Origin: a virus
Lineage: Duplodnaviria; Heunggongvirae; Uroviricota; Caudoviricetes
IMG/VR virus record: IMGVR_UViG_2877973648_000005
Location: 1-20,376 of that record
Reading direction: 5' to 3' (one strand)
Length of the DNA: 20,376 nucleotides
This document shows, in pieces, positions 900-20,376 of the stretch; position 1 is the first letter of the stretch; each line of letters opens with the position of its first letter. The notes below the pieces were generated by a model. It was not told the DNA's origin, made no database searches, and was given only the letters and a program-made list of their open reading frames with translations. Both the position numbers and the translations under genes were made by a program.

Positions 900-914
900 G
901 GTAATGACTCCAAC

Positions 915-1612: not shown

Positions 1613-1699
1613 TGGAGCACCTCAAAAACACCATCATACACTAAATCAGTAAGTTGGCAGCATCACCTTCAATCCGCATGAATTTAAAAAAGACAATTT

Positions 1700-1737
1700 T
1701 TAGAAATAAGCCGGATAAAAAAATAGCTTTATCCGGC
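1700..1737 (-). terminator. Rho-independent terminator downstream of corA
   Basis: Dyad GCCGGATAAA / TTTATCCGGC followed on the minus strand by a T-rich tract, immediately after the corA stop. Confidence 0.55.
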
Positions 1738-1744
1738 ACTCATA

Positions 1745-3352: not shown

Positions 3353-3407
3353 GGTGATGCTGCCAACTTACTGATTTAGTGTATGATGGTGTTTTTGAGG
3401 TGCTCCA

Positions 3408-3683
3408 GTGGCTTCTGTTTCTATCAGCTGTCCCTCCTGTTCAGCTACTGACGGGGTGGTGCGTAACGGCAAAAGCACCGCCGGACATCAGCGCTATCTC
3501 TGCTCTCACTGCCGTAAAACATGGCAACTGCAGTTCACTTACACCGCTTCTCAACCCGGTACGCACCAGAAAATCATTGATATGGCCATGAATGGCGTTG
3601 GATGCCGGGCAACAGCCCGCATTATGGGCGTTGGCCTCAACACGATTTTACGTCACTTAAAAAACTCAGGCCGCAGTCGGTAA
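3408..3683 (+). CDS. insA: IS1 InsA
   Basis: Identical 91-aa translation to the InsA at 1337-1612. Confidence 0.92.
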
Positions 3684-4105
3684 CCTCGCGCATACAGCCG
3701 GGCAGTGACGTCATCGTCTGCGCGGAAATGGACGAACAGTGGGGATACGTCGGGGCTAAATCGCGCCAGCGCTGGCTGTTTTACGCGTATGACAGTCTCC
3801 GGAAGACGGTTGTTGCGCACGTATTCGGTGAACGCACTATGGCGACGCTGGGGCGTCTTATGAGCCTGCTGTCACCCTTTGACGTGGTGATATGGATGAC
3901 GGATGGCTGGCCGCTGTATGAATCCCGCCTGAAGGGAAAGCTGCACGTAATCAGCAAGCGATATACGCAGCGAATTGAGCGGCATAACCTGAATCTGAGG
4001 CAGCACCTGGCACGGCTGGGACGGAAGTCGCTGTCGTTCTCAAAATCGGTGGAGCTGCATGACAAAGTCATCGGGCATTATCTGAACATAAAACACTATC
4101 AATAA
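3602..4105 (+). CDS. insB: IS1 InsB frame
   Basis: Identical 167-aa translation to the InsB at 915-1418. Confidence 0.88.
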
Positions 4106-4120
4106 GTTGGAGTCATTACC

Positions 4121-4325
4121 GTTTTTTGGCCCCTTCTATGGTGGCTATAATGTAATCAAACTGGATGATGAGTATAAGTATGCTCTTGTCAGTGGTCCGA
4201 ACAGAGAATACCTATGGATTCTGGCAAGGACCCCAACTATTCCAGATAAAGTAAAAGCAGACTATGTGCGAACCGCTCAAAAGTTGGGATTCAATGTCAA
4301 TGAATTATTATGGGTTAAACAATAA
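4121..4325 (+). pseudogene. 3' fragment of a lipocalin (Blc-like outer-membrane lipoprotein) gene, truncated at the IS1 junction
   Basis: FFGPFYGGYNVIKLDDEYKYALVSGPNREYLWILARTPTIPDKVK...LLWVKQ resembles the C-terminal third of E. coli Blc (FFGPFYGGYNVIALDREYRHALVCGPDRDYLWILSRTP...) but is clearly diverged; there is no start codon outside IS1. Confidence 0.7.
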
Positions 4326-4353
4326 AATCCCTACCCGAAATAATACTTATTAG

Positions 4354-4382
4354 AAAAAAACCAGCCTTTGGGGAGGCTGGCT
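4354..4382 (-). terminator. Rho-independent terminator downstream of Q (tR'-like)
   Basis: Stem CCAGCC / GGCTGG with an 8-nt loop; on the minus strand it is followed by seven T. Confidence 0.6.
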
Positions 4383-4480
4383 AAATCAGGAAACAAGCTG
4401 TTATATGATAATAACTACGTTGCGATTCCAACATTTAAAATGTTAGACTAATGACAATCAGACAGCAACTTTTCCTTTAA

Positions 4481-4873
4481 TTATTTCGAACAATCAGCAT
4501 CCATCTCCAATCGGAGAACCAACACCATCAGCATACCCTCCACTACGCCCTCAGCTTTCTGAAGCATCCTGCCAACCCAACAATCAGATCGCCCATGCTT
4601 ACGTGCAAGCGCCATAAAAGTCATGCCGCCGACATAATAGTCCACCAATAAATCATGCAAATCGCTGTTGTTCTTTTTCAGACGGGCCATGCACCCGCAA
4701 ATGATCATCGCGTCATCGTCACAACATTGTGGGCGAGATTTTACTTTTGAAGGAATTAATCCCTTAAAACCGGCGGCAATGGACGACCAGGTCACATCTT
4801 CATGATTATTAGCCGCCCACGCTCCCCAACGCTCAAGAACCATCTGAATATCACGCATCAACTTACTCCACAA
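4481..4873 (-). CDS. Late-gene antiterminator Q, short QuuD-like type
   Basis: Position (last gene of the nin region, upstream of a terminated short leader) and size/sequence resembling the DLP12 QuuD class of Q proteins; the native start may be the internal Met (MRDIQ...). Confidence 0.7.
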
Positions 4874-4943
4874 AACTCAGACCAGAACGCCAATTACAAG
4901 CAAAAATCAACAAAACAGTATTAGTTGATTGTTATCTCTGACT

Positions 4944-5084
4944 TCATACTCCTGCTCCTGTCAGTGTTTTGGCGTAATTCTTCAGTATTCGGTAATCGGT
5001 CAAAACAGAACCGGGGAAACGATATAAGCGCAGACGCCCCCAGCGGTGGCGAAGAAGTTCTGCCATATTAAACTCAAACATCAT
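4944..5084 (-). CDS. Small YlcG-like protein (46 aa)
   Basis: Sub-threshold [49 protein letters not shown] whose start overlaps the rusA stop, as in the DLP12 rusA-ylcG-quuD arrangement. Confidence 0.45.
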
Positions 5085-5443
5085 TCATTCCCCATTTCGG
5101 TGATGGTCAGTTCCAGCCTCCCACCTTTGGTAACAGGCATCTTCACAACGCGGTAATCAACGACCTGAGCATCATCCAGCCAGAAACCTGCTTTAGTGAG
5201 TGCGTCAAAAGCGGCTTTTTGCAGATTATCCAGGTCACGGCGACGGCGATCCGGCATGTGGCACTCAATGCGGATTTTCACAGGCATAGCCAGGCCGATA
5301 TCTAGCATTGCGTTTTTAATGATTCGGGCGACGTTATCGCGGTATGCCTGCCCCTCTGCGCTGATGTGCGTGCGTCCGCGATTATGGCGGTAATAGCGAT
5401 TATTGCTCGGAGGCCAGGGTAATGTGATGCTGTAGGTATTCAC
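5081..5443 (-). CDS. rusA: RusA Holliday-junction resolvase
   Basis: 120-aa translation matches E. coli/DLP12 RusA ([26 protein letters not shown]...). Confidence 0.92.
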
Positions 5444-5730
5444 GCCTTAATAACCCCCTCTTTCAGCCAGATAACCTGTGTTCTCGCCATACCTTCCAGC
5501 GCGCATTCTTTTGCATATGCAGCATCGACAAAATGTGTGCGGCGGTCGATTTCGTCGTGGCAGGCAGAACATGCAATGGTGGCAATCAGGTCTGGCGGTT
5601 TGATACCGGTACCGCACAATCCAGCCAGCCGGATATGTGCCAGTACAGACGTCTCAGAATTGCCATTACATACGCCAGGGATTCTTACCTGGCATTCCCG
5701 ACCACGCGCTGCTTTTCTCAAATCAGCCAT
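5440..5730 (-). CDS. ybcO: YbcO-like prophage nuclease (DUF1364)
   Basis: 96-aa translation from [24 protein letters not shown]... matches DLP12 YbcO; the ORF-track start at 5769 is an upstream extension. Confidence 0.85.
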
Positions 5731-5893
5731 GATTCCTCCTTGCTGCCAGTCGCAACCATTTTTTATCAACCAGGCTAGCGGTATATCCGAGCAGTGTTGG
5801 TATTTCGGATGGCTTCAGCTCAGGCTTACGCTTACGACGATTTGATACTCTGTAGATGTGTCCGTTCATGACACGAATAAGCGGTGTAGCCAT
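5723..5893 (-). CDS. ninE: NinE-like protein (56 aa)
   Basis: Sub-threshold [50 protein letters not shown]...; its start overlaps the ybcN stop (TAATG) and its stop overlaps the ybcO start. Confidence 0.7.
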   Translation of the reverse strand: MATPLIRVMNGHIYRVSNRRKRKPELKPSEIPTLLGYTASLVDKKWLRLAARRNHG

Positions 5894-6348
5894 TACGCCT
5901 CCTGCTTGTCGCGGAGCAGCTGGAACTCGCAGCTCTGCGGAATAGTCAGGTGGCAGCCAATATTCATCGCCCAGGCTTCAACCTTACACAGGAAGACATA
6001 CATCTCTCCGGTATCAAGATTGGAGGTATGACGTAATGACTGAATGGTGGTGATTTCACCGGTTACGACATCAACCAGTTCTTTGGTTTCATAACCGAGA
6101 TAAGTGTGTTTGAGAGCATCTTTTACCCAAGCTGGAGTGGCGAACGTTTTACCCCTGCTGATGAGGTATTCACTGATTTCGCTGTACCACATGTGGCTGA
6201 GTGCATTCTGGGAAAGACTGCGTCTCTCGCGCCACGGTTTAAGCACCATGCGAAAGCATTTGCCGTCCTCCAGATAAGGCTGGATCTGCCGACCGATAGC
6301 GGTGAAGTTACCGCGATGCAATTTGATACCATCTTGTGGGAGGTTCAC
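5893..6348 (-). CDS. ybcN: NinB/Orf-family recombination protein (YbcN-like, 151 aa)
   Basis: [17 protein letters not shown] motif comparable to lambda NinB RSLDQNRKLW...; size and position match DLP12 ybcN. Confidence 0.78.
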
Positions 6349-6554
6349 GCTTCACCTCCGCAGAGATCAAACGCTGGATGCAAAATATCGCAGGTGCATT
6401 TCTGCATCTGTGAATGGAGAAGAGAGGTTGGATTGTATGTGCGCATAAACGTCCCCGTTTAGCGCAGAAGTCACCGAAGTTGTTCAGGCTCCGATTACTT
6501 AATTATGGCAAGTTGATTATCGCAAATCAAAGGTTTTAATTGTGCTTTATTCTT

Positions 6555-6755
6555 TCAAGCGTTTCCTTCATACCAAAGCCTATAAAGTTTTTCTTCTTCG
6601 TTTGGGTTAATAGGCTCACCATGTTTTAATTTTTCAGTGTACAAAATTGTTGAACAAATCGCGGAAGTTAATCCAGTGATCGCCATCTGCCGCAGATCGG
6701 ATTTTTGTGTCCCCCTCAACAGACGATCTCCCATCCATGTAATAATTGTATCCAT
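6555..6755 (-). CDS. Hypothetical 66-aa protein
   Basis: ORF in AT-rich DNA with a plausible RBS (aagaagg); no recognisable family. Confidence 0.35.
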   Translation of the reverse strand: MDTIITWMGDRLLRGTQKSDLRQMAITGLTSAICSTILYTEKLKHGEPINPNEEEKLYRLWYEGNA

Positions 6756-7347
6756 GCTTCAGCCCTTCTTAGTAAATAGTGTGTAGGGCGACTGAAGGAC
6801 CGAGTTTATGCTTTTTCGCATTGCTTTCAGTTAGTAGACCGGTATAGCACCGGAAACAATCCTACGGCAAATTGGTTGTCTGACCTCTCGGTTTTTCGTG
6901 CATTAACCGATACCCACTACAGTCTCGGCGAAAGCTGCACACCCCCAAGGTGTACTGGTAGCACTCGGCACAGCCTAGCGCGCCACTTTCTTCTCACTAT
7001 CCAGTCTAATTTTATCCCCTAGTCAGACACTCAGATGTAGTGCTCAGCAGCGGCATGCGGGGGAATACAAAAACTCGGACAAAATTGGGCCCTCCTTTTT
7101 GAATCACTCGCGGGGATGTAGTTATTAATACATGGGAAAAGATCTGTTTTCAAATCCAACATTATATGGTTTCAATACCACGGGGTGGCTATGTGTTTCT
7201 CATTATTATTTACAATCTACTGTAATCGCTCCGAACGCAAATGCGTCAATACTCGAATCAACTGATCATCCTGCCACGACTGAAATCTCAAATAGGCCGT
7301 TTCTCAAGTAAGAGATTTTGAATGCATTATTGGCTACTGAAATAAAA

Positions 7348-7378
7348 AACCCAGCGCAAACTGGGTTCATATGAAATT
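7348..7378 (-). terminator. Rho-independent terminator after the secreted-protein gene
   Basis: CCCAG...CTGGG stem followed by TTTTTT on the minus strand, just downstream of the stop at 7385. Confidence 0.5.
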
Positions 7379-7384
7379 TTTTTG

Positions 7385-7879
7385 TCATTTCCAATTGCAA
7401 GACTGTGAAATTTTTTCCACAACCTTATCAATCTCAGACAAGTCAAACTCAACTACTTGCATAGTTGATCCATAAGGTTCAAACCCAAAAATAGCTTTTT
7501 TATGCTTAGCCAAGGTCTTTATAAATTGTATTGGTTGTGGAGCAAATGCAGAATCACCGCCTTCCCCACCTCCCCAAACACTCTTGACCGGCTTTCCGCC
7601 ATCTAACCGCACTGTAATTCTTGGGTTGTCCGAACCCATATAATCATTGAATGATAAATAGGCATCTGTTTTGTTATCACTACAACGCAACACCAGTGAA
7701 GTTGCACGATCAGTACCTGCTTTGTTATATGAATCTGGTGATAAATTAAGAGCCACAAAGTCAGTCTGGTCAGTCATTTTATTTATCTCAGACTTTGTTA
7801 TCCACGGCCCTAACTTCTCTACACCAGCATTTGCTGTAAACGAGGCACTTATAACAAAGGCTAAAATAAATTTTCTCAT
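7385..7879 (-). CDS. Hypothetical secreted protein (164 aa) with Sec signal peptide; moron in the ren/ninA position
   Basis: N-terminus MRKFILAFVISASFTANA is a signal peptide; strong RBS aaggaga; AT-rich codon usage distinct from flanking lambda genes; own terminator. Confidence 0.65.
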   Translation of the reverse strand: MRKFILAFVISASFTANAGVEKLGPWITKSEINKMTDQTDFVALNLSPDSYNKAGTDRATSLVLRCSDNKTDAYLSFNDYMGSDNPRITVRLDGGKPVKSVWGGGEGGDSAFAPQPIQFIKTLAKHKKAIFGFEPYGSTMQVVEFDLSEIDKVVEKISQSCNWK

Positions 7880-8025
7880 AACCCTATCTCCTTGGATTCA
7901 AAGAACTAAATATTATCAAGTCTCTTGCCACTAGAAAACCCACTTTATTTCCAAACTCTGATGGCATTCCTGAAAATCCGCTTCATACTCACTTGCCCCG
8001 CCCTATCATCCTGAGTAGCTAACCG

Positions 8026-8199
8026 TTAAACAAACGTTCGCCAGACCTTACCATCAATGACCAGGATTCCTGCCCGCGTCATTTTTGCCGCAGCCTTATT
8101 TATGCTGGTTAATGTCACACCTGTTGTCGCAGCAACGTCCGGCGCACAGAAGCTCTTGTGCGTCTCCAGATAATGAATAATTGCCTCTTTGCCCGTCAT
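8026..8199 (-). pseudogene. ren: Truncated ren (57 codons; first ~55 residues Ren-like)
   Basis: MTGKEAIIHYLETHKSFCAPDVAATTGVTLTSINKAAAKMTRAGILVIDGKVWRT matches the lambda Ren N-terminus, then diverges to a stop; the ATG overlaps the P stop (ATGA) as in lambda. Confidence 0.65.
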
Positions 8200-8897
8200 A
8201 CAGTTGCTCCTTTCAGTCCGAACTTCGCTTTGATTTCTGCGATCTTCGCCAGAGCCTGAGCCCGGTTAAGTGGTCTACCGCCCATGACAGGAAGTTGTTT
8301 TACTGGTTCAGGTATAGCCTCACCACGGTTAATTCGTGCGGTCATACAGGACAGTTCATCGGCAGCCTTGCGCCGTAATTCCGCGTCAGTCAACGCATTG
8401 GCCCGCATGTTCTGATACAGGTTGGTAACCAGCCAGTAGTGCGCGTTTGATTTCCACGGATAAGACTCTGCATCCGGATACAGCCCGCGCTTCCGGCAAT
8501 ACTCGTAAACCATATCAACCAGCTCGCTGGCGTTTGGCAGCCCGGCGGTAACGGATGCTTCTTCCCGGCACCAGGCGACAAACTGCCCGGGTGATGGCAG
8601 GAATGGTCGATTCTGCCGACGGGCTACGCGCATTCCAGCGTTAACCTGTTCCATTGTGGTGATCCCGTTTTCCCGAAAAGCCAGCACCCACTGGCGGCGG
8701 ATTTCGTTCAGTTCATTCTGGTCACGGTTAGCCAGGCTCGCCGGGAAAGTTGCCAGTAACTGGCTGAACACACCGTTGATGATCTGCGCTACCTGCTGTA
8801 CCTGCGGCTTTTCGTCGTACTGTTCCGGCATGTTGTTGGCGATCCGACGCATCTGCTCACGGTCAAAGTTAACCATCTGTGCGGCGATGTTTTTCAT
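8196..8897 (-). CDS. P: Replication protein P (DnaB helicase loader)
   Basis: 233-aa translation nearly identical to lambda P (MKNIAAQMVNFDREQMRRIANNMPEQYDEKPQVQQ...). Confidence 0.95.
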   Translation of the reverse strand: MKNIAAQMVNFDREQMRRIANNMPEQYDEKPQVQQVAQIINGVFSQLLATFPASLANRDQNELNEIRRQWVLAFRENGITTMEQVNAGMRVARRQNRPFLPSPGQFVAWCREEASVTAGLPNASELVDMVYEYCRKRGLYPDAESYPWKSNAHYWLVTNLYQNMRANALTDAELRRKAADELSCMTARINRGEAIPEPVKQLPVMGGRPLNRAQALAKIAEIKAKFGLKGATV

Positions 8898-9913
8898 AAA
8901 TCCACCCCGTAAATCCAGTCAGTGTTTGTCAGGTCGAGTTTTGGTTTGCTGGCTATCATGCCTGCCTGTTGCTTGTTACGGTTGATTTCGAGTTGGGTCC
9001 ACTTGTCGCGGAGTTTGGCCGGACTTAGCACGTTACCGGACCAGAAGTTGTCCTGGCATGCCCAGCGGAAAAGCACGCACATGTCGCGGTGGTTACGTCC
9101 GTCACGTTCACGCATCAGGCGGATATCGTTAGCCCACCCTGCAAAATTCGGTTTTCTGGCTGATGGTGCGATGGTCTTCACCATGTCAAACATCCACTCT
9201 GCGGCGGTCAGGTCTTCTGCTGTCCCCCACTTGCTGCCGCTCTGAATTGCAGCATCTGGTTTCACCACAGGAAGATCGTTTTCTGGTTGGTCAGAGGATT
9301 CGCCAGAATTCTCGGACGAAAAAGGTTTTATATTGTCTTTTGTTAGTTTGTCTTTTGTGTTTACCTGATTCGGGTAAACGCCTTTACCTGATTTGGGTAA
9401 ACTTTTCTTACCTGATTCAGGTAAATTTACCTCTTTCAGGTAAACTTTATTTTTCTTACCTGATTCGGGTAATGTTGACCATTCACTGACCACATTATTA
9501 ATACCGATATTCCGCCCGCTCTGAATCAAAATCCCACGCTTTACCAGAACACTTTTTGCAGCAGAACACTTGTGCGGTAATATCCCGGTCAATCCGGACA
9601 GTTGCTCGTTGCTCACCCAATCCAGTTTTTTATTAAAGCCATATGTTTTGCGCATGACAGCCAGGAAGACCAGAAGCTGGTGCTGTGTTAATCCGGCCAG
9701 CATCACAGCTTCCAGCAACTCATTTGCAATGCGCGTATAACCATCATCGAGATCTGCCACGCGCGGCTCCTTTTGTGCCGCATCCGGCACTGGAAAATTG
9801 AATATCTCAGCAGTGTTTGCCATAATTCCTCCCGCAATGAGTGTGTTACGATTTGCACCTGAAAGTCGGTTCTGTTCCAGCAGACCGGCTTTCGCCATTT
9901 CTGAACCTGTCAT
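8894..9913 (-). CDS. O: Replication initiator O-like protein (iteron-binding), contains ori
   Basis: Located immediately upstream of and overlapping P; contains internal iteron array plus AT-rich tract, the lambda O/ori architecture. The N-terminal domain differs from lambda O. Confidence 0.85.
   Translation of the reverse strand: MTGSEMAKAGLLEQNRLSGANRNTLIAGGIMANTAEIFNFPVPDAAQKEPRVADLDDGYTRIANELLEAVMLAGLTQHQLLVFLAVMRKTYGFNKKLDWVSNEQLSGLTGILPHKCSAAKSVLVKRGILIQSGRNIGINNVVSEWSTLPESGKKNKVYLKEVNLPESGKKSLPKSGKGVYPNQVNTKDKLTKDNIKPFSSENSGESSDQPENDLPVVKPDAAIQSGSKWGTAEDLTAAEWMFDMVKTIAPSARKPNFAGWANDIRLMRERDGRNHRDMCVLFRWACQDNFWSGNVLSPAKLRDKWTQLEINRNKQQAGMIASKPKLDLTNTDWIYGVDL
9361..9474. repeat. Replication origin iterons: five ~19-bp direct repeats TTACCTGATTCGGGTAAAC, each an internal palindrome
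   Basis: Repeats at 9361-9379, 9384-9402, 9408-9426, 9427-9445 and 9456-9474 with 0-10 bp spacing, inside the O reading frame. Confidence 0.8.
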
Positions 9914-10449
9914 ATCGCCCCCAGCATGGTAGTAACCATCGCCATCAATGGACCAGCCAGATCTGGGTCCACACGAAACATCGATACAATACCTTCACTA
10001 ATTTCCTTCAGTTTCTGGTGGCGTGGTGCGTTAAGAATGACAGCCTGTTTTGCCTCACTGAGTTCCTTTTCCATTTCAGCCAACCTGGCCATGAAGCTAT
10101 CCTGCTCAACCAGGTAACCGCGATATTCCAGCGGTAGTACCGCCAGAATTGCCGGGGTCAGTTCACGCACGTTATTTCGGTATTTTTCAGAATCGAATTT
10201 GTTATCGAGGAAGCGGAACAGCTTCTGGCGTGCACGGCTGACATCATCAGGGAAATCGATGGTGCCGCCGCCCTGCTCCCGATACTCATTCACAATGAGT
10301 GTGGCAACGACATCCTGATTATCTACAGCCGACCAGGCGCGGACGGCATCACGGATTTTTTCGTGGCCTGGCACCTGTTTTGTTTGAGAACGATTTATCA
10401 CCGCAGTCGGGCTAAATCCGCTAGTCTGTTGGTATGGAAGTGGTTGCAT
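9910..10449 (-). CDS. YdaT-like protein in the cII position (179 aa)
   Basis: Sits between cro and O with the stop overlapping the O start; the Cro-like + larger-protein pair resembles Rac ydaS-ydaT. Assignment is by synteny and general resemblance, not a firm match. Confidence 0.5.
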   Translation of the reverse strand: MQPLPYQQTSGFSPTAVINRSQTKQVPGHEKIRDAVRAWSAVDNQDVVATLIVNEYREQGGGTIDFPDDVSRARQKLFRFLDNKFDSEKYRNNVRELTPAILAVLPLEYRGYLVEQDSFMARLAEMEKELSEAKQAVILNAPRHQKLKEISEGIVSMFRVDPDLAGPLMAMVTTMLGAI

Positions 10450-10518
10450 AATTGACTCCTTTAGTTTGAATTGACTGTTAAGTTGATTGCTTATTGTTAA
10501 AGAGCGTGAAATGGAAAT

Positions 10519-10749
10519 TTAAGCTGCGTTCTTTTCGGTGTGTGGAAACAACTTCGGAAGATCCGGGCGAATCTGGTATGCCTTCACTACTCCACCAGTA
10601 GCCGTAACAATGCTGCCGACATGTTCAGGGGATACCTTTGCTTTGTTGTGAAGCCACTTATAGACGGCCTGCTGTGAAACTTCGCAAGCAGCGCCCAGTT
10701 TCTTTTGTGAACCAACGATATTGATCGCTGTTTTGATAGCTGGGTTCAT
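10519..10749 (-). CDS. cro: Cro-like repressor (YdaS/Cro HTH family, 76 aa)
   Basis: Small HTH protein divergent from cI across an operator-rich 104-bp spacer; GGAGG RBS 5 nt upstream. Confidence 0.7.
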   Translation of the reverse strand: MNPAIKTAINIVGSQKKLGAACEVSQQAVYKWLHNKAKVSPEHVGSIVTATGGVVKAYQIRPDLPKLFPHTEKNAA

Positions 10750-10853
10750 AACAACCTCCGTGGTTAATTTGAATCAAGATTAAAACTATGGTTGTTTTTA
10801 GTCAACAACCATTTTCGTTTGATGGAATAAAACCTTGGTTGTACATTTGGACT
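10750..10853. promoter_or_regulatory. OR/pR/pRM divergent control region
   Basis: Intergenic between divergent cro and cI; contains the 17-bp palindrome AAAACTATGGTTGTTTT (10782-10798), related to a site in the OL region. Confidence 0.6.
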
Positions 10854-11543
10854 ATGAAAACAACACTCTCAGAAAGACTTAAAGAAGCCAGATTAGCGCG
10901 AGGCCTTACACAAAAGGCGCTTGGGGATTTGGTCGGGGTTAGCCAGGCTGCTATTCAGAAAATCGAAACAGGGAAAGCTAATCAAACAACTAAAATCGTG
11001 GAGATCGCGAACGCTTTGGGTGTGCGCGCAGAATGGTTATCTTCTGGCGTTGGAAATATGTCAGACAGTACAGTGCAACCAATACAATCAACTGTCAGCC
11101 ATTCCAAATACTTCAAGATTGACGTTCTTGATATAGAAGTCAGTGCTGGGCCGGGAGTCATCAACCGTGAGTTTGTAGAAGTTCTACGCTCGGTTGAGTA
11201 CTCGTTTGACGATGCTCGTCACATGTTCGATGGTAGGAAGGCGGAAAATATCCGCATCATTAACGTGCGTGGTGACAGCATGTCAGGAACGATCGAACCA
11301 GGTGATCTGCTGTTCGTTGATATCACAGTTAAATCTTTCGACGGTGATGGTATCTATGCGTTTCTGTACGACGACACAGCCCATGTAAAGCGCCTGCAAA
11401 TGATGAAGGATAAGCTGCTGGTCATCTCTGATAACAAAAGCTACTCACCGTGGGACCCGATCGAGAAAGACGAGATGAACCGGGTGTTCATCTTCGGTAA
11501 GGTTATTGGGAGCATGCCGCAGACATATAGGAAGCATGGGTAG
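10854..11543 (+). CDS. cI: CI prophage repressor (N-terminal HTH, C-terminal S24 LexA-like autopeptidase)
   Basis: HTH LTQKALGDLVGVSQAAIQKIETGK; the C-terminal domain has the GDSM serine motif and a downstream Lys (HVKRLQ). Start placed at MKTTLSERL (apparently leaderless, as for lambda pRM), because the ORF-track start at 10788 would lie within the operator region. Confidence 0.85.
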   Translation: MKTTLSERLKEARLARGLTQKALGDLVGVSQAAIQKIETGKANQTTKIVEIANALGVRAEWLSSGVGNMSDSTVQPIQSTVSHSKYFKIDVLDIEVSAGPGVINREFVEVLRSVEYSFDDARHMFDGRKAENIRIINVRGDSMSGTIEPGDLLFVDITVKSFDGDGIYAFLYDDTAHVKRLQMMKDKLLVISDNKSYSPWDPIEKDEMNRVFIFGKVIGSMPQTYRKHG

Positions 11544-11664
11544 TACCAATTAAAAATTATCAACTGGGCATTGTGCTCATTCAGTAAAGAACTAATTCCT
11601 ATCTTTGCTCTAGGTAGTAATATTAAGCCACCGCAATAATATCTTTACCTAACGGCGTAAGAAT

Positions 11665-11690
11665 CCCGGTCACCGTGCCGGGTTTTCTTT
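11665..11690 (+). terminator. Rho-independent terminator after cI
   Basis: CCCGGT / GCCGGG stem followed by TTTTCTTTT. Confidence 0.55.
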
Positions 11691-11799
11691 TGCCCTCCCC
11701 TCATCACACACACCGTTAAAAAAACCACCATAACCTCGCTTCAGTTATCGCTATGCGATTCAAGTCACAAAATAAATCCATCCTAAATACAACCAGTTA

Positions 11800-11870
11800 T
11801 ATCTAAAACAACCAATAAAACAACTTTTGTTGTTGACGATAAAACAACTATAGTTTTAAATAAGTTCATC
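11800..11870. promoter_or_regulatory. OL/pL-like region
   Basis: AT-rich segment with TTGACG (-35-like) and the palindromes CAACTTTTGTTG and AAAACAACTATAGTTTT (11841-11857), the latter differing by one base from the reverse complement of the OR site. Confidence 0.5.
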
Positions 11871-12054
11871 GCAACAACACAACGATACGGCAACTACCTG
11901 ATTCACCGTTGCGATGACCGCTTAGATCCGCAGTTTGAATTTCAGCAGGCTTCGGGGAGTGCGAGGGGTGAAACGGACGCGTGAACGTCGGTGTGACCAG
12001 CTGAAATTAACTCAACATTTCATACCTCAGTCGCTTCAACGAGGCGGCTTAGTT

Positions 12055-12345
12055 ATGACAACCGGCGGCCATCCACCGCCTGAATATGCGCAGAAGTCTC
12101 TATATGTTCAGCAGCCCAGCTTACGGGCAGGAGTTTTTATGGTTCATCAACATTACGGAACACAGACCGTTAATCGCGGCGCGGTCATGCCAGGAATGCT
12201 GGTCAAACACAAAGATGGTACCTGGACTGCATCAGCTAATTTACGCGGACGGCTTTATCTGCATCGCGGCATCGAGCGCACTTATACCAGTGATTTGCTC
12301 GTGGAAGTTTTTCTCGACGGACGCGGTAACGGCCTGAATCACTAA
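12055..12345 (+). CDS. Hypothetical early-left protein (N/kil/cIII position)
   Basis: ORF immediately upstream of gam with a GAGG RBS; the same frame extends upstream through an Arg-rich stretch (KRTRERR) to GTG/TTG starts. Confidence 0.45.
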   Translation: MTTGGHPPPEYAQKSLYVQQPSLRAGVFMVHQHYGTQTVNRGAVMPGMLVKHKDGTWTASANLRGRLYLHRGIERTYTSDLLVEVFLDGRGNGLNH

Positions 12346-12421
12346 CCCCCCTTTCCTGTTTTCCTAATCAGCCTGGCATTTCGCGGGCGATATTTTCACA
12401 GCCATTTTCAGGAGTTCAGCC

Positions 12422-12718
12422 ATGAACGCTTATTACATTCAGGATCGTCTTGAGGCTCAGAGCTGGGCGCGTCACTACCAGCAGCTCGCCCGTGAAGAGA
12501 AAGAGGCAGAACTGGCAGACGACATGGAAAAAAGCCTGCCCCAGCACCTGTTTGAATCGCTATGCATCGATCATTTGCAACGCCACGGGGCCAGCAAAAA
12601 AGCCATTACCCGTGCGTTTGATGACGATGTTGAGTTTCAGGAGCGCATGGCAGAACACATCCGGTACATGGTTGAAACCATTGCTCACCACCAGGTTGAT
12701 ATTGATTCAGAGGTATAA
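12422..12718 (+). CDS. gam: Gam, RecBCD inhibitor
   Basis: Translation [37 protein letters not shown]... matches lambda Gam (short form). Confidence 0.95.
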
Positions 12719-12723
12719 AACGG

Positions 12724-13509
12724 ATGAGTACAGCACTCGCAACGCTGGCTGGGAAGCTGGCTGAACGTGTCGGCATGGATTCTGTCGACCCACAGGAACT
12801 GATCACCACTCTTCGCCAGACGGCATTTAAAGGTGATGCCAGCGATGCGCAGTTCATCGCATTGTTGATCGTCGCCAACCAGTACGGCCTTAATCCGTGG
12901 ACGAAAGAAATTTACGCCTTCCCTGACAAGCAGAACGGCATCGTTCCGGTGGTGGGCGTTGATGGCTGGTCCCGTATCATCAATGAAAACCAGCAGTTTG
13001 ATGGCATGGACTTTGAGCAGGACAATGAATCATGTACATGCCGGATTTACCGCAAGGACCGTAATCATCCGATCTGCGTTACCGAGTGGATGGATGAATG
13101 CCGCCGCGAACCATTCAAAACCCGCGAAGGCAGAGAAATCACGGGGCCGTGGCAGTCGCATCCCAAACGGATGTTACGGCATAAAGCCATGATTCAGTGT
13201 GCCCGTCTCGCCTTCGGATTTGCTGGTATCTATGACAAGGATGAAGCCGAGCGCATTGTCGAAAATACCGCATACACTGCAGAACGTCAGCCGGAACGCG
13301 ACATCACTCCGGTTAACGATGAAACCATGCAGGAGATTAACACTCTGCTGATCGCCCTGGATAAAACATGGGATGACGACTTATTGCCGCTCTGTTCCCA
13401 GATATTTCGCCGCGACATTCGCGCATCGTCAGAACTGACACAGGCCGAAGCAGTGAAAGCTCTTGGATTCCTGAAACAGAAAGCCACTGAGCAGAAGGTG
13501 GCAGCATGA
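12724..13509 (+). CDS. bet: Bet (Red-beta) single-strand annealing protein
   Basis: 261-aa translation essentially identical to lambda Bet. Confidence 0.97.
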
Positions 13510-14186
13510 CACCGGACATTATCCTGCAGCGTACCGGGATCGACGTGAGAGCTGTCGAACAGGGGGATGATGCATGGCACAAATTACGGCTCGGCGTCAT
13601 CACCGCTTCAGAAGTTCACAACGTGATAGCAAAGCCCCGCTCAGGAAAGAAGTGGCCTGACATGAAAATGTCCTACTTCCACACCCTGCTGGCTGAGGTT
13701 TGCACCGGTGTGGCTCCGGAAGTTAATGCTAAGGCGCTGGCCTGGGGAAAACAGTACGAGAACGACGCCAGAACCCTGTTTGAATTCACTTCCGGCGTGA
13801 ATATTACTGAATCCCCGATCATCTATCGCGACGAAAATATGCGCACCGCCTGCTCTCCCGATGGTTTATGCAGTGACGGCAACGGCCTTGAACTGAAATG
13901 CCCGTTTACCTCCCGGGATTTCATGAAATTCCGGCTCGGTGGTTTCGAGGCAATAAAATCGGCTTACATGGCCCAGGTGCAGTACAGCATGTGGGTGACG
14001 CGAAAAGATGCCTGGTACTTTGCCAACTATGACCCGCGCATGAAGCGTGAAGGCCTGCATTATGTCGTGATTGAGCGGAATGAAAAGTACATGGCGAGTT
14101 TTGACGAGATGGTGCCGGAGTTCATCGAAAAAATGGACGAGGCACTGGCTGAAATTGGTTTTGTATTTGGGGAGCAATGGCGATGA
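13506..14186 (+). CDS. exo: Exo (Red-alpha) 5'-3' exonuclease
   Basis: 226-aa translation essentially identical to lambda Exo; start overlaps the bet stop. Confidence 0.97.
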
Positions 14187-14365
14187 CGCATCCTCACGAT
14201 AATATCCGGGTAGGCGCGATCACTTTCGTCTACTCCGTTACAAAGCGAGGCTGGGTATTTCCCGGCCTTTCTGTTATCCAAAATCCACTGAAAGCCCAGC
14301 GGCTGGCTGAGGAGATAAATAATAAACGAGGGGCTGTATGCACAAAGCATCTCCCGTTGAGTTAA
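14177..14365 (+). CDS. lambda orf60a-like protein
   Basis: [31 protein letters not shown]... matches lambda orf60a. Confidence 0.75.
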
Positions 14366-14529
14366 GAACGAGTATCGAGATGGCACATAGCCTCGCTCAA
14401 ATTGGAGTCAGGTTTGTGCCAATACCAGTAGAAACAGACGAAGAATTTCACACGTTAGCCGCATCCCTTTCACAAAAGCTGGAAATGATGGTGGCGAAAG
14501 CAGAAGCAGATGAGAGAGACCAGGTATGA
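14338..14529 (+). CDS. lambda orf63-like protein
   Basis: [37 protein letters not shown]... matches lambda orf63. Confidence 0.75.
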   Translation: MHKASPVELRTSIEMAHSLAQIGVRFVPIPVETDEEFHTLAASLSQKLEMMVAKAEADERDQV

Positions 14530-14605
14530 CAACCACTGAATGCATTTTTCTGGCAGCGGGCTTCATATTCTGTGTGCTTATGCTTGCCGACATGGGACTT
14601 GTTCA

Positions 14606-14821
14606 ATGACACCTCAGCAGGAAAACGCCCTTCGCAGCATTGCCCGTCAGGCTAATTCTGAAATCAAAAAAGCCAGACAGCAGTTTCCGGATAAAAACGT
14701 CGATGACATTTGCCGTAGCGTACTGAAGAAGCACCGCGAAACGGTAACGCTGATGGGATTCACACCGACTCATTTAAGCCTGGCAATCGGCATGTTAAAC
14801 GGCGTCTTTAAGGAACGATGA
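14606..14821 (+). CDS. lambda orf61-like protein
   Basis: MTPQQENALRSIARQANSEIKKARQQFPDKNVDDICRS... matches lambda orf61; the ORF-track start at 14540 is an upstream extension. Confidence 0.7.
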   Translation: MTPQQENALRSIARQANSEIKKARQQFPDKNVDDICRSVLKKHRETVTLMGFTPTHLSLAIGMLNGVFKER

Positions 14822-14919
14822 ACATGAAAAGCAAAATCATCAGGGAGCTACAGGCTCCTTTTTTATTATTCGCATTCACCCTCAAGCGTATTAACCAACA
14901 ATTCAGGGATTAATGGAAG

Positions 14920-15141
14920 ATGGCAGACATCATTGATTCAGCATCAGAAATTGAAGAATTACAGCGCAACACAGCAATAAAAATGCGCCGCCTGAACCAC
15001 CAGGCTATATCTGCCACTCATTGTTGTGAGTGTGGCGATCCGATAGATGAACGAAGACGCCTGGTCGTTCAGGGTTGTCGGACTTGTGCAAGTTGCCAGG
15101 AAGATCTGGAGCTTATCAGTAAACAGAGAGGTTCGAAGTGA
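14920..15141 (+). CDS. TraR/DksA-family C4 zinc-finger protein (lambda orf73-like)
   Basis: CCECGDPIDERRRLVVQGCRTCASCQ four-Cys motif. Confidence 0.7.
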   Translation: MADIIDSASEIEELQRNTAIKMRRLNHQAISATHCCECGDPIDERRRLVVQGCRTCASCQEDLELISKQRGSK

Positions 15142-15449
15142 GCGAAATTAACTCTCAGGCACTGCGTGAAGCGGCAGAGCAGGCAATGCATGACGACTGG
15201 GGATTTGACGCAGACCTTTTCCATGAATTGGTAACACCATCGATTGTGCTGGAACTGCTGGAACTGCTGGATGAGCGGGAAAGAAACCAGCAATACATCA
15301 AACGCCGCGACCAGGAGAACGAGGAAATTGCGCTAACGGTAGGAAAGCTGCGCGTTGAGCTGGAAGCAGCAAAATCAAAACTCAACGAGCAGCGTGAATA
15401 TTACGAAGGTGTTATCTCGGATGGAAGTAAGCGTATTGCTGAACTGTAG
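15138..15449 (+). pseudogene. ea22: Truncated ea22 (N-terminal 103 codons only)
   Basis: MSEINSQALREAAEQAMHDDWGFDADLFHELVTPSIVLELL... matches the start of lambda Ea22 (182 aa in lambda); it ends where the AT-rich island begins. Confidence 0.65.
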
Positions 15450-15699
15450 GCCTAGGTTGAGTGTACAAGATTTGCATACGTAAGAGCAAAAGACAAGGGA
15501 GAATTGATCAGAGTTATTACCTGCCAACCAACGGGATATTACGCTTACGTACCATGTAACTAGGAATCCTTGAAGTGGCAGCCTAACTGTGGATACACTG
15601 AAATGGCGATTTGGTAACATGTTTCGCACAAGGCTGTTACTACGCTTAGAGATAATCAGTCATGATTAAATGCTTTGTAAAAAGTAAAAGGAAATTACA

Positions 15700-16314
15700 A
15701 TGAAAAAATCAACACTAATTTTAGGGCTTACGTTAATTGTCTCATCTCAAATACCATCGGCAATGGCAAAAAATGAATCAAAACTTTGGGTTGTTGTTGA
15801 TCGAACGGAAAGACATACCTGCCCTTCAAGTAAATGTGGAGTGGCTGGGAAACTATTTTTCAGGGAAGGCGTAGATTTTCTAGAAAAAAAAGGTGAATGG
15901 GTTCGTATAACTGAGCCATATTCAGCCTCATGTGTGGGAGGGGAAAGCGAATATATTAAAGAAGGTAATAAATCCTGCACAAGAAAAAACGGAATCGTTA
16001 ATGGCAAGTTTTCAGAATGGGTTAAACTTAGTGATCTTAGCAGTGAAAGGCCATCAGATCCTGCTGAAAATGCGAGCAGAAATGATACCTTAATCAAAGG
16101 ATCTGATGACTACCGTATATACAAAAAAGAGTTTTCTTCGGCAGCTAGGAAGTTAATAAGTGAAGGTGTCTGCACGGAGAGCGATTTTAAGGAAGTTGGA
16201 GGGTGGATGGCATCAAGCAATAAGGGTGAAAACATCTATTTCACATATTGCGGAGGAATGACGTTGTCGAACAGAATATATCTAGACGTTAAAAGTGGAA
16301 AGACTTTTAGATAA
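15700..16314 (+). CDS. Hypothetical secreted Cys-rich protein (204 aa), cargo gene
   Basis: Signal peptide MKKSTLILGLTLIVSSQIPSAMA; AAGGA RBS; six Cys in the mature part; very AT-rich relative to the prophage backbone. Confidence 0.65.
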   Translation: MKKSTLILGLTLIVSSQIPSAMAKNESKLWVVVDRTERHTCPSSKCGVAGKLFFREGVDFLEKKGEWVRITEPYSASCVGGESEYIKEGNKSCTRKNGIVNGKFSEWVKLSDLSSERPSDPAENASRNDTLIKGSDDYRIYKKEFSSAARKLISEGVCTESDFKEVGGWMASSNKGENIYFTYCGGMTLSNRIYLDVKSGKTFR

Positions 16315-16607
16315 TATGATATTACCAATGACAGCATTAATTTAATGCCTCCATAGAATTATCTCTAGGAAGTAAGTATAAGAAAAGTCCGCACAATGAG
16401 CTGCTGCGGGCTTTGTGTTATTCGCCATATTTTATGAAGCAAATACGACACTATAGATAATTAAGCGTTACTGGTTGTCGATTCCTCACTCATTCCTGCT
16501 GATGGCTGTCTTCTTGTATGTGTCATTGAAGGGTAATATCGCGTAAAAAGATACCGGAAGTATCCGCGCCGCCATGATTGTCTTTCTCCTGATGCAGGAA
16601 AAGCAGA

Positions 16608-16946
16608 ATGACTAAATCAGCAGCAGAGCGCAAAGCCGATCAGAGAGCCAAGCAAGCATCATCCGGTATGCGTAAGCTGGAGCTTGTACTTGATGCTCAG
16701 GAAATTGAAATGCTGGAGCGTAACTGAGCCACGCGCCGCTTCAGGCGTGCGCCTTACGAGTTTGGTGAGTACATAGCGTTACTGAGCCGCCAGGATGATG
16801 CACGTGTGCGCTGGCGTATAAAATCGATTAGCAGAAAACGTTGCCGTAAGTGCGGCGAGAAAGTTCCTGTTAATTCATGCCCGTGTAATGGTGACTCACA
16901 ATACTGGGTGACCAAAGGCTGGCACGAAACAAAATTAATGATATAA
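16608..16946 (+). pseudogene. Zinc-ribbon small protein gene interrupted by an in-frame TGA (39 codons, TGA at 16725-16727, then 72 more sense codons)
   Basis: AGGAAAAG RBS before the ATG at 16608; the same frame continues after the TGA to a TAA at 16944-16946 and encodes CRKCGEKVPVNSCPCNG. Neither half alone reaches 60 aa. Confidence 0.4.
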
Positions 16947-16974
16947 ATCTCTGTGACATGTCACGGAGGCGGCA

Positions 16975-17403
16975 ATGAAATTAGACCAGCAATATCTAAA
17001 AGATCTACTTATCGCATTCGAAAAAACTTATGGCCCTGACACGATGCTTAGTGAACTAGAGGATAATGGCTTTAATAGATATGACCAAAATTTTATTTTC
17101 CATATGCGATTATTATGTGACTACGAATTAATAGTTAGGGTTGATGGAAAACCTGGGTTCGGTCATATAATGTCCAACGAGTTAGGGGAAGGTGTTGAAT
17201 ATAGTTGGATCGAAGTACCACTGAGGTTGACAGCAAGAGGGCATGATTTTATTGCTGACTTACGTCAAAAGGAGGTCTGGCAAGCTATAAAAACAAACTT
17301 TAAGGATGAGGGGATTAGTACTCTTATGAGTGTTTCAAAATCACTAGCAAAAGGCTTTGCAAGAAAAAAAATAAAAGATATTACAGGAATAGATATTGAA
17401 TAA
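16975..17403 (+). CDS. Hypothetical cytoplasmic protein (142 aa), cargo gene
   Basis: Strong GGAGG RBS; AT-rich; followed by a terminator; no recognisable family from sequence alone. Confidence 0.65.
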   Translation: MKLDQQYLKDLLIAFEKTYGPDTMLSELEDNGFNRYDQNFIFHMRLLCDYELIVRVDGKPGFGHIMSNELGEGVEYSWIEVPLRLTARGHDFIADLRQKEVWQAIKTNFKDEGISTLMSVSKSLAKGFARKKIKDITGIDIE

Positions 17404-17448
17404 TTCTTAGCATAAAGCAACTACTGCCTTTGGTGAAAATTATATCTG

Positions 17449-17471
17449 AACTCGCTACGGCGAGTTTTTTT
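17449..17471 (+). terminator. Rho-independent terminator after the 142-aa gene
   Basis: CTCGC-TACG-GCGAG hairpin followed by TTTTTTT. Confidence 0.6.
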
Positions 17472-17511
17472 ATGGAGATGATAAATGCACTTCCGAGTCA
17501 CAGGTGAATAG

Positions 17512-17652
17512 AATGGAGAACCATTCAACAGAGTTATCGAAGCCGAGAACATCAGCGACTGCTATGACCACTGGATGCTGTGGGCGCAGATAGCACATGC
17601 AGACGTAACCAATATTCGAATTGAAGAACTGAAAGAACACCAAGCCGCCTGA
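17512..17652 (+). pseudogene. Start-less 3' remnant of an Ea8.5-like gene
   Basis: 46 sense codons (...ISDCYDHWMLWAQIAHADVTNIRIEELKEHQAA*) bounded upstream by TAG with no initiation codon; lies where lambda ea8.5 sits relative to xis. The Ea8.5 assignment is from position and memory only. Confidence 0.4.
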
Positions 17653-17665
17653 TGGCGGTTTTTTC
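17644..17665 (+). terminator. Rho-independent terminator upstream of xis
   Basis: CCGCC-TGAT-GGCGG hairpin followed by TTTTTT. Confidence 0.5.
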
Positions 17666-17691
17666 TTGCGTGTAATTGCGGAGACTTTGCG

Positions 17692-17910
17692 ATGTACTTG
17701 ACACTTCAAGAGTGGAACGCTCGCCAGCGACGCCCAAGAAGCCTTGAAACAGTTCGTCGATGGGTGCGCGAATGCAGGATATTCCCTCCTCCGGTTAAGG
17801 ATGGAAGAGAATATCTGTTCCACGAATCAGCGGTAAAGGTTGACTTAAATCGACCAGTAACAGGTAGCCTTTTGAAGAGGATCAGAAATGGGAAGAAGGC
17901 GAAGTCATGA
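17692..17910 (+). CDS. xis: Xis excisionase
   Basis: MYLTLQEWNARQRRPRSLETVRRWVRECRIFPPPVKDGREYLFHESAVK... matches lambda Xis; overlaps the int start. Confidence 0.95.
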   Translation: MYLTLQEWNARQRRPRSLETVRRWVRECRIFPPPVKDGREYLFHESAVKVDLNRPVTGSLLKRIRNGKKAKS

Positions 17911-18958
17911 GCGCCGGGATTTACCCCCTAACCTTTATATAAGAAACAATGGATATTACTGCTACAGGGACCCAAGGACGGGTAAAGAGTTTGGATTAGG
18001 CCGAGACAGGCGAATCGCAATCACTGAAGCTATACAGGCCAACATTGAGTTATTTTCAGGACACAAACACAAGCCTCTGACAGCGAGAATCAACAGTGAT
18101 AATTCCGTTACGTTACATTCATGGCTTGATCGCTACGAAAAAATCCTGGCCAGCAGAGGAATCAAGCAGAAGACACTCATAAATTACATGAGCAAAATTA
18201 AAGCAATAAGGAGGGGTCTGCCTGATGCTCCACTTGAAGACATCACCACAAAAGAAATTGCGGCAATGCTCAATGGATACATAGACGAGGGCAAGGCGGC
18301 GTCAGCCAAGTTAATCAGATCAACACTGAGCGATGCATTCCGAGAGGCAATAGCTGAAGGCCATATAACAACAAACCCTGTCGCTGCCACTCGCGCAGCA
18401 AAATCAGAGGTAAGGAGATCAAGACTTACGGCTGACGAATACCTGAAAATTTATCAAGCAGCAGAATCATCACCATGTTGGCTCAGACTTGCAATGGAAC
18501 TGGCTGTTGTTACCGGGCAACGAGTTGGTGATTTATGCGAAATGAAGTGGTCTGATATCGTAGATGGATATCTTTATGTCGAGCAAAGCAAAACAGGCGT
18601 AAAAATTGCCATCCCAACAGCATTGCATGTTGATGCTCTCGGAATATCAATGAAGGAAACACTTGATAAATGCAAAGAGATTCTTGGCGGAGAAACCATA
18701 ATTGCATCTACTCGTCGCGAACCGCTTTCATCCGGCACAGTATCAAGGTATTTTATGCGCGCACGAAAAGCATCAGGTCTTTCCTTCGAAGGGGATCCGC
18801 CTACCTTTCACGAGTTGCGCAGTTTGTCTGCAAGACTCTATGAGAAGCAGATAAGCGATAAGTTTGCTCAACATCTTCTCGGGCATAAGTCGGACACCAT
18901 GGCATCACAGTATCGTGATGACAGAGGCAGGGAGTGGGACAAAATTGAAATCAAATAA
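17888..18958 (+). CDS. int: Int, lambda-type tyrosine integrase (356 aa)
   Basis: Translation essentially identical to lambda Int (MGRRRSHERRDLPPNLYIRNNGYYCYRDPRTGKEFGLGRDRR...). Intact, so this is not a DE3-type int disruption. Confidence 0.97.
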   Translation: MGRRRSHERRDLPPNLYIRNNGYYCYRDPRTGKEFGLGRDRRIAITEAIQANIELFSGHKHKPLTARINSDNSVTLHSWLDRYEKILASRGIKQKTLINYMSKIKAIRRGLPDAPLEDITTKEIAAMLNGYIDEGKAASAKLIRSTLSDAFREAIAEGHITTNPVAATRAAKSEVRRSRLTADEYLKIYQAAESSPCWLRLAMELAVVTGQRVGDLCEMKWSDIVDGYLYVEQSKTGVKIAIPTALHVDALGISMKETLDKCKEILGGETIIASTRREPLSSGTVSRYFMRARKASGLSFEGDPPTFHELRSLSARLYEKQISDKFAQHLLGHKSDTMASQYRDDRGREWDKIEIK

Positions 18959-19046
18959 TGATTTTATTTTGACTGATAGTGACCTGTTCGTTGCAACAAA
19001 TTGATAAGCAATGCTTTTTTATAATGCCAACTTAGTATAAAAAAGC
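18959..19046. other. attL: lambda P' arm (18959-19031) plus 15-bp core (19032-19046) joined to bacterial B sequence
   Basis: Reverse complement reads ...TGAAGCCTGCTTTTTTATACTAAGTTGGCATTATAAAAAAGCATTGCTTATCAATTTGTTGCAACGAACAGGTCACTATCAGTCAAAATAAAATCATTATT, the canonical lambda core plus P' arm. Confidence 0.88.
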
Positions 19047-19092
19047 AGGCTTCAACGGATTCATTTTTCTATTTCATAGCCCGGAGCAACCT

Positions 19093-20376
19093 GTGAACAC
19101 ATTTTCAGTTTCCCGTCTGGCGCTGGCATTGGCTTTTGGCGTGACGCTGACCGCCTGTAGCTCAACCCCGCCCGATCAACGTCCTTCTGATCAAACCGCG
19201 CCTGGTACCTCTTCTCGCCCGATTCTGTCGGCAAAAGAAGCGCAGAATTTCGATGCTCAACACTATTTTGCATCCCTGACACCAGGTGCTGCAGCGTGGA
19301 ATCCTTCCCCGATTACCCTGCCTGCGCAACCTGAATTTGTTGTCGGCCCGGCGGGCACTCAAGGTGTAACGCATACCACGATTCAGGCGGCGGTAGATGC
19401 GGCAATTATCAAGCGTACCAACAAGCGCCAGTATATTGCCGTGATGCCTGGTGAGTATCAGGGAACGGTATATGTCCCTGCCGCTCCGGGTGGAATTACT
19501 CTGTACGGTACAGGTGAAAAACCGATTGATGTGAAGATTGGGCTTTCCCTTGATGGTGGCATGAGCCCTACCGACTGGCGTCACGACGTCAACCCGCGCG
19601 GCAAATATATGCCAGGTAAACCAGCGTGGTATATGTACGATAGCTGCCAGAGCAAACGCAGCGACAGTATCGGTGTTCTCTGCTCTGCGGTCTTCTGGTC
19701 ACAAAACAATGGCCTGCAACTGCAAAATCTGACCATCGAAAACACGCTGGGCGATAGCGTAGATGCAGGTAACCATCCGGCGGTGGCACTGCGTACTGAT
19801 GGTGACCAGGTACAGATTAACAACGTTAACATTCTCGGTCGTCAGAACACCTTCTTTGTCACCAACAGCGGTGTGCAGAACCGTCTGGAAACCAACCGTC
19901 AGCCGCGTACGCTGGTGACCAACAGCTATATTGAAGGGGATGTGGATATCGTTTCTGGTCGCGGCGCAGTGGTGTTCGATAACACCGAATTCCGCGTGGT
20001 GAACTCACGTACTCAGCAAGAAGCGTATGTGTTTGCACCGGCTACGCTGTCCAACATCTATTACGGTTTCCTCGCCGTAAACAGCCGTTTCAATGCTTCC
20101 GGTGATGGCGTGGCACAACTGGGCCGCTCGCTGGATGTTGATGCCAATACCAACGGTCAGGTGGTGATCCGTGATAGCGCCATCAACGAAGGTTTTAACA
20201 CGGTTAAACCGTGGGGCGATGCGGTGATTTCCAATCGTCCATTTGCGGGTAATACCGGCAGCGTTGACGATAGCGACGAAATACAGCGCAATCTGAATGA
20301 CACTAACTACAACCGCATGTGGGAATACAATAATCGCGGCGTGGGTAGCAAAGTGGTTGCAGAGGCGAAGAAGTAA
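19093..20376 (+). CDS. ybhC: YbhC outer-membrane lipoprotein (pectinesterase-fold acyl-CoA thioesterase homologue)
   Basis: 427-aa ORF with lipobox LTAC; translation matches E. coli YbhC, the gal-side neighbour of attB(lambda). Confidence 0.88.
   Translation: MNTFSVSRLALALAFGVTLTACSSTPPDQRPSDQTAPGTSSRPILSAKEAQNFDAQHYFASLTPGAAAWNPSPITLPAQPEFVVGPAGTQGVTHTTIQAAVDAAIIKRTNKRQYIAVMPGEYQGTVYVPAAPGGITLYGTGEKPIDVKIGLSLDGGMSPTDWRHDVNPRGKYMPGKPAWYMYDSCQSKRSDSIGVLCSAVFWSQNNGLQLQNLTIENTLGDSVDAGNHPAVALRTDGDQVQINNVNILGRQNTFFVTNSGVQNRLETNRQPRTLVTNSYIEGDVDIVSGRGAVVFDNTEFRVVNSRTQQEAYVFAPATLSNIYYGFLAVNSRFNASGDGVAQLGRSLDVDANTNGQVVIRDSAINEGFNTVKPWGDAVISNRPFAGNTGSVDDSDEIQRNLNDTNYNRMWEYNNRGVGSKVVAEAKK

Follow-up and report, generated by a model that had tools for sequence, protein, structure and literature searches.

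The open reading frame at positions 16608-16946 of the analysed window, a stretch of 20,376 nucleotides with 100% identity to E. coli TC24, is in our reading a pseudogene (probability about 0.93): a small phage DNA-binding-protein gene in a decaying lambda-like E. coli prophage, interrupted by an ordinary TGT to TGA nonsense mutation. An initial annotation, made from the letters of the window alone, had named a nonsense-inactivated gene as the simplest reading, and this is now backed by the Cys found in the homologues, the restriction of the stop to one shallow clade, relaxed selection, additional lesions and the PGAP pseudogene call. The status itself is already known, since in both TC24 and ATCC 8739 PGAP/RefSeq calls it a pseudogene and notes an 'internal stop'. 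Running counter to a pseudogene are the position of the stop, at a Cys that does not vary in close homologues (the classic signature of a selenocysteine (Sec)/Cys pair), and the frequency of the TGA allele, which is recorded on more than 1,600 contigs and has come through about 3% sequence divergence without being deleted.

The frame begins with an ATG at 16608 and continues for 39 sense codons up to the TGA, after which it stays open for 72 codons and is closed by TAA at 16944-16946; the probability of 72 codons remaining open by chance is about 0.03. The downstream part carries the motifs C79-x2-C82 (16842-16853, with C79 at 16842-16844 and C82 at 16851-16853) and C91-x-C93 (16878-16886, with C91 at 16878-16880 and C93 at 16884-16886), while at codon 99, a Cys in 118 of the 120 best homologues, the window has TAC (Tyr). 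Thus the 39-codon frame with its ribosome-binding site, the TGA, the further open codons and the Cys motif are all present as first described. The features of the locus are as follows.

16596..16599, plus strand: AGGA resembling a ribosome-binding site (Shine-Dalgarno-like), 8 nt ahead of the ATG, read from sequence
16608..16724, plus strand: first 39 codons of the putative dead gene, predicted to encode the N-terminal helix, the beta-strand and the greater part of helix A in a ribbon-helix-helix (RHH)-like domain
16725..16727, plus strand: in-frame TGA, interpreted as a nonsense change at Cys40, whose ancestral codon is TGT
16728..16946, plus strand: putatively untranslated remnant, codons 41-112 plus TAA, predicted to hold helix B of the RHH-like domain together with a Cys zinc ribbon at the C-terminus; from the translation, column conservation and variant counts
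16732..16749, plus strand: 6-bp hairpin with arms CGCGCC (16732-16737) and GGCGTG (16744-16749), one G-U pair and loop GCTTCA

When the stop is read as Cys, the repaired 112-aa frame matches the phage protein family phrog_536, labelled 'transcriptional regulator', with an E-value of 1.7e-47, residues 1-111 aligning to profile positions 2-114 of 115. The open frame downstream of the TGA is on this full-length match evidently real and beyond chance, and the case of a downstream segment not conserved as protein, which would have spoken against an interrupted gene, does not apply. A protein search returned 423 homologues at E<=1e-3, nearly all of 112 aa and found in Escherichia, Salmonella, Citrobacter and their relatives; a profile search of the full library returned 179 representatives at the same threshold. 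In the best 120 of the 423 homologues Cys40, C79, C82 and C91 are invariant, C93 is present in 119 and C99 in 118. In a set of 55 distant members of full length, C79 and C82 still never vary and C99 is kept in 54, but Cys40 in only 36, the other 19 having R, A, M or I. Another member of the family is p55 of Escherichia phage phiV10 (YP_512310.1), an intact protein of 112 aa that its record likens to gp49 of epsilon15.

The domain structure of the family was approached through weak matches and modelling. Scanned against Pfam and NCBIfam, the repaired protein had no match above the curated cut-offs; below them lies a weak match to the NCBIfam LexA-regulated protein YbfE (E 0.0067), and a few family members weakly match Pfam RHH_5, RHH_1 and RepB-RCR_reg. 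A sequence-profile search of the PDB with a shallow alignment produced no match, and with a deep alignment only the zinc fingers of YbiI/TraR at an E-value of about 0.05, aligned to the C-terminus. The AlphaFold model had a pLDDT of 62.5 with the shallow alignment, too poor to use, and of 89 when distant homologues were added; a Foldseek comparison with the PDB found nothing significant. Taken together, the weak matches and the model suggest that the intact protein is an RHH-like (beta-alpha-alpha; CopG/Arc/MetJ) DNA-binding module fused to a C-terminal Cys zinc ribbon. In this model the stop lies close to where helix A ends, and the 39-aa product contains neither helix B nor the zinc ribbon.

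The ancestral state of codon 40 is apparent from the closest relatives. TGT is found at the aligned codon of phiV10 p55, in the intact sister alleles that share the synteny of the window (L004-L009, with the ORF between a gene for a 204-aa protein and a DUF2513 gene), and in the gene for P0001, at 94% identity the nearest of the intact proteins, which has the same arrangement in prophages adjoining torS. One intact TGT allele, L079, encodes a protein exactly equal to the inferred ancestor of the TGA alleles. The alignment with homologues proposed by the initial annotation thus gave a clear sense codon at the position of the stop, namely Cys, in all 120 close proteins and, as TGT or TGC, in 79 out of the 108 loci that were sampled; by codon, these loci (69 haplotypes) carry TGT in 66 cases, TGC in 13 and TGA in 28, proportions that are biased by the 18 loci fetched with a TGA-specific pattern. 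A scan of genome contigs for the TGA pattern picked up one Cytophagales MAG contig, which has no similarity to the gene and was discarded as a chance 20-base match.

TGA is confined to a single shallow clade, recognizable by F45, R46, S60, W69 and the terminal KLMI. All sampled TGA alleles also have in common the synonymous substitution CGT to CGC at codon 43, and this, along with the intact ancestor-like L079, points to a single event. Judged from the aligned alleles, TGA is therefore the derived state, produced by one TGT to TGA nonsense mutation of Cys40. A sequencing error was considered and rejected, because the TGA occurs in many independent assemblies. Contigs on which the 39-aa product is recorded number 832 for the window type and 804 for the ATCC 8739 type, and 139 complete genomes match at 80% coverage or more, a set that may also contain intact sister alleles; the TGA alleles differ by about 3% in sequence and show no deletion of the locus.

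Recombination has also contributed to the present alleles. Metagenome contigs contain further recombinant backgrounds, for example the TGA behind a P0001-like N-terminus. In the window, the last third of the ORF (ATT74, CGT80, TAC99) and the adjoining DUF2513 gene are closest to the intact allele L010/P0004 and its DUF2513 neighbour. Since Tyr99, Arg80 and ATT74 are shared with that allele, this tract arrived by recombination. Decay after the mutation was rejected as the origin of Tyr99, which is present in intact L010/P0004.

The pattern of substitution in the TGA-bearing alleles is that of a gene under relaxed constraint. Their unique variants comprise 15 nonsynonymous and 4 synonymous changes, a per-site ratio of about 1.04, against 34 and 40 (ratio about 0.24) in 41 intact phiV10-like haplotypes; taken over the entire gene, this difference is significant (Fisher p=0.011), and for codons 41-112 alone it has the same direction and is non-significant (9:4 against 21:27, p=0.13). 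Near-invariant residues are struck by A10V, R47H, R66H, R66C and G80D; C99Y is also counted here, although the Tyr99 of the window was itself acquired by recombination. The intact sister alleles also have a high ratio, 7:2 in the raw count and 6:2 once a variant also present in the TGA alleles is left out, and constraint on the clade was therefore perhaps already lost before the TGA arose. Relaxed constraint, as read from these variant counts, may thus predate the TGA and is not on its own proof that the TGA stops translation. Additional lesions were found in two loci. Allele L027 (IMGVR_UViG_2617270985_000006, 3433-3770) combines TGA40 with a 1-nt deletion near codon 31, and L100 (IMGVR_UViG_2711768051_000004, 1501-1836), which belongs to the sister lineage and is otherwise intact, has an independent TGC to TGA change of Cys79 together with G104R.

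These variants bear directly on whether ribosomes might pass the stop to some purpose. Of the stop codons, UGA is the leakiest in E. coli, and a leaky or programmed readthrough by near-cognate Trp- or Cys-tRNA could in principle supply a low functional dose of the full-length protein, the TGA acting as an attenuator of expression. In K-12 reporters, where Trp-tRNA competes with RF2, basal readthrough of UGA is about 2-4% (PMC10570021), and almost all of the TGA alleles sampled have kept the downstream frame open. However, an open frame needs no selection over so short a time, corresponding to about 3% divergence over 72 codons; the variants are mostly nonsynonymous and four of the struck near-invariant positions lie downstream of the stop (R47H, R66H/C, G80D and C99Y), one TGA allele is frameshifted, and Trp would hardly be neutral in place of an otherwise invariant Cys. 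Nor is there a conserved stimulatory structure: the stop is limited to one shallow clade, the nearby structure is neither significant nor conserved, and the extension is unconstrained. We consider functional readthrough very unlikely. The basal leak may yield traces of a full-length Trp40 protein, and nothing indicates selection for them.

The stem noted in the initial annotation is present and begins on the fifth nucleotide past the TGA, that is, after 4 intervening nt. The 66 nt following the TGA fold at -23.5 kcal/mol, compared with -20.7 +/- 2.8 for shuffled sequences (z -1.0, 31 of 200 shuffles being as good). In the equally common ATCC 8739-type TGA allele the hairpin is weakened by R47H from -14.2 to -8.8 kcal/mol, and comparable hairpins of -11 to -12 kcal/mol occur in TGT alleles; hence it is unlinked to the TGA. 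The hairpin is an incidental by-product of GC-rich Arg/Ala codons and no SECIS. This agrees with a covariance-model scan of positions 16400-17100 against all Rfam families, which returned no match at E<=10 and no SECIS. The SECIS of E. coli fdhF, passed through the same procedure as a positive control, was detected as RF01988 SECIS_2 with 87.1 bits and an E-value of 1.8e-19. The loops differ as well: GCUUCA of the window starts 10 nt past the UGA, whereas the apical loop of fdhF lies, according to its fold, about 17 nt downstream. The fdhF loop is of the GGUC type and is the place where SelB makes contact.

Insertion of Sec, with SelB and Sec-tRNA(Sec) recruited by the 3' hairpin and a full-length selenoprotein regulator as the product, would account for a UGA that is aligned to a Cys invariant in 120 close homologues, recurs in many independent assemblies and is followed at 4 nt by a hairpin, in a host that owns the Sec machinery (fdhF and its SECIS are found in 5419 of 5426 genomes, and in 5413 the SECIS sequence is 100% identical and located under fdhF). 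Yet only the alignment of UGA with Cys was found among the marks of a selenoprotein, and neither a SECIS nor downstream purifying selection. No SECIS model responded although the control was recovered, the hairpin is no better than shuffles and unlike fdhF in loop sequence and spacing, its stem is broken in a TGA allele as common as that of the window, and similar stems stand in TGT alleles. Moreover, Cys40 lies outside any redox motif and is replaced in the distant members mentioned above, and the alleles have gathered extra lesions. Sec decoding has in our view next to no probability. Thus, of the alternatives raised at the outset, neither readthrough nor Sec insertion is upheld, the stem being neither significant nor specific to TGA.

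The gene may instead have been split, so that the 39-aa N-terminal peptide is genuine, or the zinc ribbon is made by re-initiation at GTG 16806, or both. Gene callers do report the 39-aa ORF for more than 1,600 contigs, a PHROG family of 40 aa exists (phrog_34005), and a 46-aa ORF opens at GTG 16806 with AGGA 10 nt upstream, recorded once by name (P0143). Every sampled 39-aa ORF, however, has the remnant of the full gene behind it and is thus the same pseudogene rather than a member of an independent short family. The 39 upstream codons have accumulated 6 nonsynonymous and no synonymous variants in the TGA alleles, as well as the frameshift, and on the model a single beta-strand plus an incomplete helix A would be unable to form an RHH dimer. 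In the wider family no homologue ends at codon 40 by design; homologues ending there are what the initial annotation had listed as overturning its reading. A split gene appears extremely unlikely.

The nonsense-killed gene resides in an element that is itself defective. The surroundings of the ORF in the window are as follows.

1-477: ybhB
478-19092: defective lambdoid prophage remnant of about 18 kb, between ybhB and ybhC at attB-lambda
15700-16314: gene for a 204-aa protein (phrog_8310) with a signal-peptide/lipoprotein-like N-terminus and a weak SH3_3 match
about 16465-16570, plus strand: internal fragment of a umuD-like gene (S24 peptidase), found by BLAST; annotated by PGAP in ATCC 8739 as 'DNA repair protein, incomplete'
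16550-16599, plus strand: last ~50 nt of a ninX gene, found by BLAST matches to ninX 3' ends, directly ahead of the start region of the ORF
16975-17403: DUF2513 gene (phrog_585)
19093-20376: ybhC

The remnant retains int, xis, exo, bet and gam, a repressor/cro pair, replication genes O/P, nin genes and Q, followed by IS1, and is without any lysis or structural (late) genes. PGAP lists five pseudogenes in it, namely ren, an ea22-like fragment, a lipocalin fragment, a 55-codon ORF and the ORF in question. The 55-codon ORF (17485-17652, plus strand), located 0.5 kb downstream, is also called an 'internal stop': its codon 9 is TGA (17509-17511), and the homologue in ATCC 8739 (WP_000545728.1) has TGG (Trp) at this place. 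At the truncated end of the prophage an inverted pair of IS1 copies (915-1612 on the minus strand and 3408-4105 on the plus strand) brackets the chromosomal genes corA and ysgD (1745-2903); this segment (915-4105) may represent an IS1 composite or else mark where a rearrangement mediated by IS1 ended. ATCC 8739 has an extra IS1 adjoining the ea22-like remnant (L002, 1441-2138), a further sign of decay in that lineage.

The neighbourhood of the ORF is both mosaic and decaying. Its higher GC content relative to the two AT-rich flanking genes, pointed out in the initial annotation, was reproduced (0.493 against 0.385 for the upstream 204-aa gene and 0.352 for the downstream DUF2513 gene). The mosaic nature of the island, likewise proposed there, is seen in the umuD-like fragment and the ninX tail just upstream and in the affinity of the 3' third of the ORF and of DUF2513 to L010. 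The 204-aa gene, the ORF and the DUF2513 gene form a travelling module of three genes with AT-rich flanks (L004-L010), observed in prophages at attB-lambda and torS.

Based on these data, we propose the following course of events for the nonsense-killed gene. The ancestor would have been a 112-aa phrog_536 protein encoded in the early-left (pL) operon, between the 204-aa and DUF2513 genes. One TGT to TGA transversion turned codon 40 into a stop, so that ribosomes starting at ATG 16608 would be released by RF2 at the UGA. The product would lack both the zinc ribbon and helix B, the presumed dimer core of the RHH fold, and is therefore probably non-functional. Afterwards the locus would have undergone neutral drift and recombination among related prophages, persisting only through the chromosomal inheritance of the defective prophage at attB-lambda.

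The last step of this scenario has an alternative of its own, in which inactivation was selected rather than neutral, loss of the regulator being of benefit to the lysogen or to the resident defective prophage, with the 2-4% leak at UGA leaving a tunable trace of the full-length protein. At least three independent knock-outs in the clade (TGA40, TGA79 and the frameshift) and the spread of TGA40 to more than 1,600 contigs and several recombinant backgrounds mean that inactivation could have been selected. We regard this as unlikely.

By itself, another inactivated gene of a prophage in decay has little biological weight. The intact phrog_536 family, in turn, is widespread in enterobacterial prophages and uncharacterised, and the model suggests for it an RHH module with a Cys zinc ribbon. 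The locus is also of use for the prediction of selenoproteins, where candidates are filtered by a TGA aligned to a conserved Cys and by the presence of several TGA-bearing sequences (PMC1976440, PMC12013277). The ORF would pass such homology filters, and it offers an example of a false positive that is removed only by SECIS and selection tests.

Comparison with established selenoprotein genes leads to the same view. The ORF resembles E. coli fdhF, fdnG and fdoG in having a UGA at the position of Cys in homologues, a Sec-capable host and a hairpin nearby. In contrast to them, it has no SECIS, its hairpin is wrong in spacing and loop and is not conserved, there is no constraint downstream, and Cys40 belongs to no redox motif and can be replaced in distant relatives within the family. 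With the intact members of phrog_536 the repaired frame shares 85-94% identity, equal length and an equal position in the early region. Finally, the nonsense pseudogenes of cryptic and defective lambdoid prophages of E. coli provide the closest parallel: like them, the ORF has a single-base stop in an otherwise alignable sequence with intact phage orthologues, neutral evolution with added lesions, pseudogene neighbours and a prophage truncated by IS1. Overall, nothing essential distinguishes it from these pseudogenes, and what is unusual is that the stop falls on a family-invariant Cys codon and that the allele is very widespread.
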